Assembly (NCBI GenBank): GCA_900317715.1
Contig: ONHS01000003.1
Coordinates: forward strand, 7,954-71,953
Direction: 5' to 3'
Length of the DNA stretch: 64,000 nt
From: an uncultured Bacteroidales bacterium
Lineage (GTDB): Bacteria; Bacteroidota; Bacteroidia; Bacteroidales; WCHB1-69
The first letter of the stretch is position 1; every line of letters begins with the position of its first letter. Below, piece by piece: positions 39,198 to 40,707 of this stretch. The translations under genes and the position numbers were made by a program. The notes under the pieces were generated by a model, which was not told the DNA's origin, searched no databases, and saw nothing but the letters and a program-made list of their open reading frames with translations.

Positions 39198-39240
39198 ATT
39201 TTTGGATTTTTGGTGAATAATATCGAATGTACGTTCATTG

Positions 39241-39400
39241 TATCATCATATCCTCGTCATTCGACCCAGGGTTGCGGCCAGAGGCCTTACCCTGGGCTAC
39301 CGAGCTCTTGCCCCTACGGGGCTACTCAAGGAAGTAGTTTAATATATGTGGGAGCTTTTCGGCATAAACTGCTAACTTCTAACTACTAACTGCCAACTAT
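39241..39400 (-). repeat. Structured intergenic repeat, copy C (inverse orientation, co-oriented with creD)
   Basis: The reverse complement aligns with copies A and B. Stem-loops GCCCC-gta-GGGGC and CCCAGGG-n18-CCCTGGG, the latter shifted and compensated relative to A/B. Confidence 0.8.
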
Positions 39401-39409
39401 CAAAAAGTA

Positions 39410-39424
39410 CTTTGCGCTACAAAG
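39410..39424. promoter_or_regulatory. Operator-like motif CTTTGCGCTACAAAG, within the conserved 22-mer AAAAGTACTTTGCGCnnCAAAG
   Basis: Second copy of the motif at 40517-40531. Lies just after the regulator stop and upstream of copy C and creD. Confidence 0.45.
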
Positions 39425-39442
39425 TTTTATACCAAAAAAATT

Positions 39443-39745
39443 TTACTCTCCCCGGCACCCCTGCAAAAAACGCTCCAGCGCGGCGATGTGCGCGGCGAAG
39501 GCTTCCCTGCCCGACTCTGTAATCACGTACGTCGTGTTCGGCTTGCGACCGATGAACGACTTCTCACAGCGGATGTAGCCCGCTTCCTCAAGATGACGGG
39601 TATGGCTGGCCAAGTTGCCGTCGGTGAGCTCCAACAGCGACTTCAGCGTGGCAAAATCCGCCGAACCATTCGCCGCCAACACCGACATGATGCCCAACCG
39701 GATCTTGTTCTCGAAAGCCTTATTCAAACCATCAATAATCGCCAT
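39443..39745 (-). CDS. Small winged-helix transcriptional regulator (ArsR/MarR-like, 100 aa)
   Basis: ATG start. HTH region FATLKSLLELTDGNLASHTRHLEEAGYI, then a wing RKPNTTYVITESG. Confidence 0.8.
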   Translation of the reverse strand: MAIIDGLNKAFENKIRLGIMSVLAANGSADFATLKSLLELTDGNLASHTRHLEEAGYIRCEKSFIGRKPNTTYVITESGREAFAAHIAALERFLQGCRGE

Positions 39746-39812
39746 ATCATTATTTATTTACATTGTACCATTACACAACAGTCTTACTAACTTATCCTTA
39801 TCACTCCTGATT

Positions 39813-39862
39813 CACAAGTTTCAGATTTCAAGTTTCAGGTTTCAAGTCACAAGTCACAAGTC
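39813..39862. repeat. Degenerate heptamer array (CACAAGT / TTCAAGT / TTCAGGT)
   Basis: Read directly. The minus strand has TGA at 7-nt spacing immediately after the stop at 39863. Confidence 0.88.
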
Positions 39863-40504
39863 TTACTTCTTCCGTTCAAACATCAAAACATAGGCAATCC
39901 CAAACACAACATGCATCACACTAAACCCCAAGAACCAGAACAGCAAAGCATGTGACATGGTAAAGCAGTCGATGATGCCAATGAGGAGCTCCGCATAGCC
40001 GAGGTAGCGCAAGATAGGATAAGTATAGTGACTGCAATTAACGAGCGCAAGACCGTAAAACAAAAGCATAATGGAAGAGGTTAATCCGTAATGTCCTTGC
40101 ATCACTAATGCCATGCTTAACAACCCACCAGCGGCCAATGGAATAAAGAAATCTAGAAGCATCTGCATCATACGCTTATCAAAAACAAAACGCAAATGGT
40201 GACGCCTGGACTTCGCAATGGCAAAAACGAACATGGTGAGCAGACAAATCGCAAACAATGCGATAGCAATGAGAGCGGCAATGCGAATCTTGCTCGGCGT
40301 GTCTAAAACGGCATATCGTTGCAGGTTTTCGAAGCATGGGAGCGCATCCGATACACCGATTACCGCCGCCGCCATCCAGGAAGCCACGCCTGCAAGCAAC
40401 CCGATAATAACGATTGACCAACCGCTAATCGCCTGAAAACGAGACGACTTACTCATCATCTCACGAATATCATCCAATGTCTGTTTAACCTCTTTTTCTT
40501 CCAT
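39863..40504 (-). CDS. Hypothetical polytopic membrane protein (213 aa)
   Basis: ATG start and about 6 TM segments. First gene of the putative membrane-protein/wHTH/creD transcription unit. Confidence 0.65.
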   Translation of the reverse strand: MEEKEVKQTLDDIREMMSKSSRFQAISGWSIVIIGLLAGVASWMAAAVIGVSDALPCFENLQRYAVLDTPSKIRIAALIAIALFAICLLTMFVFAIAKSRRHHLRFVFDKRMMQMLLDFFIPLAAGGLLSMALVMQGHYGLTSSIMLLFYGLALVNCSHYTYPILRYLGYAELLIGIIDCFTMSHALLFWFLGFSVMHVVFGIAYVLMFERKK

Positions 40505-40516
40505 ATCTTAAAAGTA

Positions 40517-40531
40517 CTTTGCGCCGCAAAG
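40517..40531. promoter_or_regulatory. Perfect 15-bp palindrome CTTTGCG-C-CGCAAAG overlapping the -7 box; a candidate operator
   Basis: Read directly. Lies between the -7 box (40527-40534) and ATG 40504. Confidence 0.5.
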
Positions 40532-40534
40532 ATA
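40527..40534 (-). promoter_or_regulatory. -7 promoter box TATCTTTG (minus strand)
   Basis: Exact TAnnTTTG preceded by an A8/T8 run. Lies 23 nt upstream of ATG 40504. Confidence 0.55.
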
Positions 40535-40575
40535 TACTTTTTTTTGATACATACAAGTCGTTGATGTTTTTTTTT

Positions 40576-40675
40576 GCTGTTGGCCATTAGCTATTAGCTG
40601 TTAGCTGTTAGCTGTTAGCTGTTGGCTGTTGGCTGTAAGCTTCAACTACTAACTACTAACTACTAACTGCTAACT
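40576..40675. repeat. Opposed heptamer arrays: GCTGTTA/GCTATTA x9, then CTACTAA x4-5
   Basis: Read directly. CTACTAA is the reverse complement of TTAGTAG, so the two halves form an imperfect inverted repeat. Confidence 0.9.
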
Positions 40676-40707
40676 AAAAAAAAGCGACCGATTCGAAAAC
40701 CGGTCGC
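40676..40707 (-). terminator. Rho-independent terminator ending the rpoBC-DUF3467 transcription unit
   Basis: Minus strand: GCGACCG-gttttcgaat-CGGTCGC followed by T8. Lies 33 nt after the stop at 40740. Confidence 0.8.

Follow-up and report, generated by a model that had tools for sequence, protein, structure and literature searches.

A 22-bp element, ACTTTG-N5-CAAAGT-ACTTT, that occurs twice beside the gene of a small winged-helix protein of the HTH_34 family is probably the operator of that protein, through which it would control both its own operon and the neighbouring gene creD. Both copies lie in the window (the whole stretch of 64,000 nucleotides that was analysed), in a locus whose genes for a membrane protein, the regulator and creD are all on the minus strand. 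Both are retained in orthologous loci throughout Bacteroidota, and the presence of the element follows that of the regulator gene. The features of the locus are collected in Table 1.

Table 1 Features of the regulator and creD locus, with positions in the window
Feature	Position	Strand	Basis or remark
100-aa winged-helix regulator, proposed binder of both sites	39443..39745	-	PF13601 HTH_34
213-aa membrane protein, first gene of the operon	39863..40504	-	no known family
creD, cell envelope integrity protein CreD, 453 aa	37836..39197	-	Pfam PF06123 and NCBIfam NF008712
Site 1, TCTTTG-CGGCG-CAAAGT-ACTTT (H1, spacer, H2, H3)	40511..40532	-	conserved in 100/106 orthologous loci
Site 2, ACTTTG-TAGCG-CAAAGT-ACTTT	39404..39425	-	exact match to the phylum consensus; conserved in 94/106 loci
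15-bp perfect palindrome	40517..40531	.	outer CTTTG/CAAAG arms alone conserved elsewhere
TATCTTTG, predicted Bacteroidota sigma-A -7 box (TAnnTTTG) containing H1 of site 1	40527..40534	-	sequence
CTTG, possible -33 element (consensus TTTG)	40554..40557	-	19 nt upstream of the -7 box; inferred
T7 run, companion of site 2	39434..39440	-	starts 2 nt after the regulator stop codon

The element and its conservation

An earlier note on this DNA had reported a 22-mer that is repeated in the winged-helix/CreD locus and that forms a perfect palindrome at the first of its two positions. Both observations were reproduced when the window sequence was read: AAAAGTACTTTGCGCCGCAAAG is at 40510-40531 and AAAAGTACTTTGCGCTACAAAG at 39403-39424, and CTTTGCGCCGCAAAG, at 40517-40531, is a perfect 15-bp palindrome, CTTTGCG-C-CGCAAAG. 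A search of the window with the pattern AAAAGTACTTTGCGCNNCAAAG, allowing up to three mismatches, returned two matches against 0.00 expected from 100 shuffles. The pattern of the 15-bp palindrome alone, with mismatches allowed, gave seven matches against 3.4 expected, which is no enrichment. As the palindrome by itself is not enriched and the 22-mer is absent from the shuffles, the long shared word is the non-random part.

The search was then extended to the whole assembly (3.14 Mb, 138 contigs), as the earlier note had advised. The only good matches to the 22-mer were the two at this locus, which correspond to G000:C96:48464-48485 (site 1) and G000:C96:47357-47378 (site 2). In a scan of the genome with a weight matrix derived from the orthologous sites, the two copies scored 42.3 and 41.8 bits and the runner-up 24.9 bits. 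In this genome the regulon comprises these two sites alone. The idea that the 22-mer might be a generic promoter-proximal sequence, raised in the earlier note as one danger to its proposal, was ruled out together with that of a dispersed repeat, as there are two copies per genome and the 22-mer lies outside the local repeats.

Comparison of orthologous loci showed that the conserved unit is larger than the palindrome. On the gene (minus) strand it is a 22-bp element of three hexamers, ACTTTG-N5-CAAAGT-ACTTT (ACTTTG-N5-CAAAGTACTTT when written with its second part entire), in which the inverted hexamers H1 and H2 enclose a variable 5-bp spacer and are followed by an abutting H3 that is oriented like H1. 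The centres of the inverted half-sites ACTTTG and CAAAGT are 11 bp apart, which is about one helical turn. In most close relatives the spacer is CAGCG and the perfect palindrome is broken; judging from the aligned loci, the perfect 15-bp form is a local accident of the CGGCG spacer in this genome and a few relatives. The palindrome that had been taken for the motif therefore exists, but it is not the unit that is conserved. The description of the second copy as half-degenerate had to be abandoned, as site 2 has 0 mismatches to the 22-bp consensus and is a full copy. It is site 1 that differs from the consensus, at one position (T for A), and this change completes the TAnnTTTG box that is described below.

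The comparison covered 106 orthologous loci. Of these, 26 are from the order, where loci were fetched from 24 genomes of the genus and five further families, and the other 80 are named loci in GTDB species genomes. The latter were retrieved with the regulator profile (alignment A1), and loci were oriented on the regulator gene. The taxa reached were Bacteroidales, Flavobacteriia, Cytophagia, Sphingobacteriia, Chitinophagia and one Ignavibacteria MAG. Among the loci are those of Butyricimonas, Bacteroides, Tannerella, Paludibacter, Flavobacterium, Aquimarina, Tenacibaculum and Maribacter, and further ones come from Pontibacter, Rufibacter, Adhaeribacter, Pedobacter, Mucilaginibacter, Chitinophagia and Lewinellaceae. 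Recovery was 100/106 for site 1 and 94/106 for site 2, and no site departed from the orientation of the genes. In the loci fetched from the order both sites were present throughout, one directly before the membrane-protein gene and the other past the regulator stop codon. Five of the six loci in which site 1 was missing are cut by a contig end, and in the other (L087) the site lies beyond the searched range.

At both sites sequence, placement and orientation are retained amid flanks that have diverged completely and are nearly uninformative. The spacer is free except for an A at its second position. The inner arms CTTTG/CAAAG were invariant in 54 + 49 distinct site sequences, an invariance that is partly built in, as a pattern was used to collect the sites from the fetched loci; this is offset by the whole-genome scans with a control pattern described below, which are an independent check. 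Conservation of the motif upstream of orthologous operons had been named beforehand as a check on the proposal, and the motif is indeed present there in about 100 loci and is also found before creD. One member of the same genus (G018) has two full membrane-protein/regulator/creD loci (G018:C94 and G018:C111; L032 and L015), each with both sites.

The two sites and their genes

Between the end of site 1 and the ATG of the membrane-protein gene there are 6 nt, and in the orthologous loci the start codon follows the motif at 2-9 nt. The sequence CAAAGATA at 40527-40534 reads TATCTTTG on the gene strand and matches the canonical Bacteroidota -7 box, so that the palindrome would overlap the promoter of this operon, as had been claimed. 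Among the 100 loci with site 1, the bases preceding nnTTTG are TA in 57 and TT in 40, and 97 have a T at the position before the box. A weak TTTG is visible about 18 nt upstream of the -7 box in the profile of site 1 across the loci.

In flavobacteria the sigma-A box TAnnTTTG spans -12 to -5, and leaders have a median length of 24 nt (PMC9723704). If the box of site 1 is placed in the same way, transcription would start at about 40522, within the spacer, to give a leader of about 18 nt, and the element would span roughly -10 to +12, a classic position for a repressor. The location of H1 within the -7 box and the short distance to the ATG fit autorepression by occlusion of the promoter. A leaderless mRNA with H3 as its -7 box was also considered; it is disfavoured by the distance from motif to ATG, which ranges from 2 to 9 nt and is not fixed. 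The motif was not found in the supplements of the F. psychrophilum transcription-start paper.

Site 2 begins 17 nt past the stop codon of the regulator gene (15-30 nt in the 26 loci from the order) and 206 nt upstream of the ATG of creD. Across taxa the start of the next gene is between 12 nt and more than 200 nt downstream of the site. The long distance to creD in this genome, compared with 12-30 nt in many other taxa, is due to dispersed repeats that lie in between. Such repeats are a feature of this genus: the spacers 39198-39403, 39746-39862 and 40576-40680 are packed with them, in the form of heptamer arrays and with about 100 to more than 200 short blastn matches genome-wide, and a composite hairpin element, GC-rich and about 105 nt long, lies in the creD leader and has several 90%-identical copies (C96, C121, C20).

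A run of T residues accompanies site 2 and is always placed between the regulator stop codon and the site. It is T8 in most taxa (range 7-9 T) and carries 1.6-1.8 bits per position over 94 loci. The 12 loci without site 2 are also without the T-run, which suggests that run and motif are gained and lost as one module; in most of these loci the next gene is within about 60 nt of the regulator gene, in the style of a plain operon. The T-run was rejected as the tail of an intrinsic terminator, as there is no hairpin before it and the preceding 45 nt fold no better than control segments (-5.0 vs -6.6 kcal/mol). The bases before H1 at site 2 are mixed (TT 29, AA 18, AT 18, TA 12) and form no good -7 box, which makes the status of site 2 as a promoter uncertain.

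The assignment of the gene downstream of site 2 as creD was confirmed by PF06123 (E = 2.3e-129, 432 bits) and by the NF008712 equivalog model (423 bits vs a cutoff of 275). It is followed by genes for further membrane proteins on the minus strand. The gene after site 2 encodes CreD in 59/92 loci and otherwise other small membrane proteins.

Stand-alone copies of the module are present in other genomes, where they lie 12-160 nt upstream of unlinked genes and are co-oriented with them, an arrangement that argues that the module carries a promoter. These genes encode small membrane proteins and products of envelope type; a membrane protein of about 110 aa recurs among them, and the others include Coq4-like proteins, a beta-lactamase-family hydrolase and a C92 amidase. 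T-runs are also seen 7-10 nt upstream of stand-alone sites. The Coq4-like protein (PF05019, about 150 aa, HDxxH...E motif) recurs in Flavobacteriia among the targets of the 22-bp motif (e.g. L157:1222-1668, L158:1819-2268 and L159:1557-2006, as well as 11 loci in which its gene follows site 2, such as L108), and its gene is sometimes behind two tandem sites that are 80-90 nt apart.

The regulator, its partner and the distribution of the motif

The assignment of the 100-aa protein to the winged-helix proteins, made in the earlier note, was confirmed and narrowed to HTH_34. It matches PF13601 with 108.1 bits (cutoff 27, E = 2.4e-31), its residues 15-94 covering profile positions 1-80 of 80. It falls under the cutoffs of the MarR (PF01047, 19.1 vs 24.6 bits), PadR (PF03551, 18.8 vs 27 bits) and ArsR/SmtB (NF033788, 24 vs 55 bits) models. 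A structural model (pLDDT 89) showed a winged helix-turn-helix with a long C-terminal helix. The nearest structure was PH1061 (1UB9, TM 0.88), followed by MarR-family proteins, the minimal PadR protein Rv3488 and HxlR. The compact fold resembles that of these dimeric regulators. No characterised member of HTH_34 (PF13601) was found in full-text searches by family name, accession and motif, which returned nothing relevant, and neither did literature searches on CreD with Bacteroides and winged helix or on DAP-seq in B. thetaiotaomicron.

In the ortholog alignment A1 the recognition-helix motif TDGNL.SH and the wing motif G.KP.T do not vary; paralogs have other residues at recognition-helix and wing positions. 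One small-genome family of Bacteroidota has paralogous HTH_34 proteins scoring about 75 bits (G142:C18:33609-33991 and G182:C14:76653-77026). A related motif (e.g. ATTTTGTGGCACAAAGTACTTT) adjoins this paralog in divergent orientation, and the sequences suggest that the two may be a sister regulator-operator pair.

The distribution of the element was compared with that of the regulator by scanning 41 relatives for the protein and for the pattern (up to one mismatch), with a reversed pattern as the control. The motif was present in 25/25 relatives that bear an ortholog and in 0/16 of those without one, a strong qualitative pattern and not a statistic, since related genomes are not independent and the counts overstate the weight. 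Ortholog-bearing genomes have two copies about 1 kb apart on the contig of the regulator, or four in the case of G018, the relative with the duplicated locus. The 16 relatives without the motif include two members of the same genus that are 98% (G012) and 95% (G023) complete. Also among the 16 are two relatives that have a distant paralog only (G028, G038). The reversed control pattern gave three matches in total in the 41 relatives.

The same picture, to be read with the same reserve about related genomes, was obtained from an even sample of the phylum (n = 201). The motif was found in all 63 genomes whose ortholog scored high (128 bits or more) and in 1/85 genomes without an HTH_34 match, the latter being a single match with one mismatch. 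In the genomes with intermediate-scoring paralogs 14/53 have a match, and several of these matches adjoin the paralog.

With few exceptions, the orthologous loci have the gene of the 213-aa membrane protein immediately before the regulator gene. At its N-terminus the protein has an amphipathic helix (I..MM.KSSRF.SLSG), and six helices are predicted. The protein matched no family in Pfam or NCBIfam, and its model (pLDDT 80), which is confidently helical, had no PDB neighbour at E <= 0.001. The protein family is found throughout the phylum (alignment A2) and has the conserved motifs FYGLAL.NASKYT and GFG..HI.YG. In many taxa the stop codon of the membrane-protein gene overlaps the start codon of the regulator gene.

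Proposed mechanism, alternatives and known systems

These observations are best accounted for by a mechanism in which a dimer of the regulator would recognise the inverted hexamers ACTTTG and CAAAGT, while H3 (ACTTT) may extend the site by accommodating a second dimer or by providing extra contacts. From the sequences we infer binding, and repression in preference to activation. At site 1, where H1 is part of the -7 box and the remainder of the element covers the likely start, the bound regulator would block RNA polymerase and so repress its own operon, i.e. the genes of the membrane protein and of the regulator itself. Site 2 would put creD, or elsewhere the gene of another small membrane protein, under the same regulator; it is most likely a second regulated promoter, with a site internal to the operon as the alternative. 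The signal is likely to enter through the 213-aa membrane protein, which is co-transcribed with the regulator. The earlier note had already proposed autoregulation and co-control of creD, and the computational checks that it named all favour this; the anatomy on which it had built the proposal, a 15-bp palindrome with a degenerate copy, is the part that did not survive.

The element might instead be the promoter itself, consisting of two or three TTTG-type boxes like the -7 element for sigma-A or an alternative sigma factor, with a regulator that either does not bind to it or activates. Both ACTTTG and TACTTTT resemble TAnnTTTG, the distance to the start codons is short and nearly fixed, the sites have the orientation of the genes and a T-run accompanies site 2 and the stand-alone sites. 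A pure promoter, however, has no need of the inverted CAAAGT arm, and its loss together with the regulator gene (none of the 16 relatives and one of the 85 sampled genomes without the regulator have it) would be left unexplained. In addition there is no sigma factor gene in the locus, and a dyad with a centre spacing of 11 bp is what dimeric winged-helix proteins use. It is unlikely, therefore, that the element is a promoter and nothing else. The sequence is compatible with an activator role, which the regulator may have.

A transcribed RNA hairpin (ACUUUG-loop-CAAAGU with a U-rich tail) acting as an attenuator, a terminator or a 5'-UTR element was also considered. A simple terminator scan flags site 1 on both strands, with a 6-bp stem and a T-rich tail, the two sites fold at -4.7 and -5.3 kcal/mol in RNAfold, and site 2 is directly past a stop codon. 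Against this, it is the sequence that is conserved and not the pairing: at the two sites there are 0 and 1 compensatory changes vs 13 and 8 uncompensated broken pairs, and in many Flavobacteriaceae CAAAG has become AAAAG while the opposite arm is unchanged. H3 is outside the stem, the spacer is AT-rich and the stem very weak outside this order, and the left arm of site 1 would stay untranscribed, given a -7 box at H1. The element had no Rfam match even at E <= 10. This result and the essential lack of covariation led to an RNA motif being rejected, and a hairpin function is very improbable.

The sites could also be bound by a different factor, for which the PadR-family regulator of a PadR-PspC operon in this genome is a candidate. 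Its operator is the third-best match in the genome, at 24.9 bits, and shares AGTACTTTG-N5-CAA.GT with the motif. That operator is nevertheless a symmetric palindrome in its own right, which is flanked on either side by GTAC and has CTATG/CATAG in more distant taxa. It is conserved in four relatives (G001, G010, G033 and G035), all of which are without the HTH_34 gene and the motif, and five genomes without the PadR gene (G004, G007, G016, G020 and G027) keep both copies of the motif. There is consequently hardly any likelihood that PadR or another such factor is what the sites serve. The match at G000:C81 was for the same reason rejected as a third member of the regulon, being PadR's own operator and kept without HTH_34.

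The PadR operator, AGTACTTTG-CGATA-CAAGGTACT (G000:C81:40303-40337; L004:1495-1529), is about 12 nt upstream of the TATTTTTG -7 box of the PadR-PspC operon. On one side of it is the PadR-family gene (L004:1541-1918), with a PspC-domain gene after it, and on the other a divergently oriented gene for a surface protein. Within this genus the arms of the operator have moved away from CTATG/CATAG and closer to the HTH_34 half-site, which makes cross-talk between the two regulators conceivable.

The operator of the HTH_34 regulator is thus the preferred reading of the element. A bolder version of it, which we put forward only tentatively and regard as rather doubtful, is that the locus is a self-contained promoter-operator cassette in which the ACTTTG half-site copies the -7 element, so that regulator and sigma-A would be base-for-base competitors. 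The role of sensor or anti-repressor might then fall to the six-helix membrane protein that is co-translated with the regulator, and the whole might be an unrecognised, phylum-wide envelope-stress circuit with a regulon of CreD, the membrane protein of about 110 aa, Coq4-like proteins and envelope hydrolases.

The HTH_34 family gains from this analysis a concrete 22-bp candidate operator and a defined local regulon of two sites. CreD, which is widespread and whose function is poorly understood, is linked in Bacteroidota, including gut Bacteroidales and environmental flavobacteria, with a dedicated regulator and with a membrane protein as partner. If the proposal is true, deletion of the regulator should turn creD on. 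The near-invariance of operator and recognition helix makes testing easy, and the pair is potentially a portable repressor-operator part for Bacteroidota genetics.

Small dimeric winged-helix repressors commonly bind palindromes that overlap their own promoters. The MarR autorepressors (E. coli MarR on marO and B. subtilis OhrR on ohrA) are such small dimers, acting on palindromes or pseudopalindromes over their own core promoter, often at two sites, and MarR structures are among the nearest folds of the regulator (TM about 0.7). In contrast to them, the regulator has only 100 aa, is without the N- and C-terminal dimerisation helices of MarR and is under the PF01047 cutoff, and the operator here has three hexamers and is not a simple dyad. 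The minimal PadR repressors (Rv3488, LmrR and LadR) are also comparable, as they are autoregulated, form winged-helix dimers from chains of about 100-110 aa that have one C-terminal helix, and typically control neighbouring membrane or efflux genes via a palindrome; the fold of Rv3488 is matched with a TM of 0.72. The regulator is, however, under the PF03551 cutoff, and the PadR protein of this genome has a different operator. The closest solved relative is PH1061 of Pyrococcus horikoshii (E = 1.8e-10, 33% identity over 99 columns), a protein of the same size. It is archaeal and is labelled in the PDB as a hypothetical protein and a 'transcriptional regulator homologue', labels that provide no lead to a function or an operator.

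The activator of creD in E. coli is the two-component system CreBC, which acts on a direct repeat, TTCAC-N6-TTCAC. The regulated target is thus the same, but a local one-component winged-helix protein and an inverted-repeat operator are proposed here, and no CreBC genes are present in the locus. The BlaI/MecI-BlaR1/MecR1 systems likewise combine a winged-helix repressor and a membrane protein in one operon with dyads that overlap the promoter. The analogy is one of operon logic alone, as there is no relation in sequence or fold and the membrane protein here is without a protease or sensor domain. The mechanism proposed is in itself ordinary, that of a textbook winged-helix autorepressor on a dyad overlapping its promoter. 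What is new is a regulator-operator pair for an uncharacterised family, its near-invariance across the phylum, the overlap of half-site and -7 box and the link to CreD.
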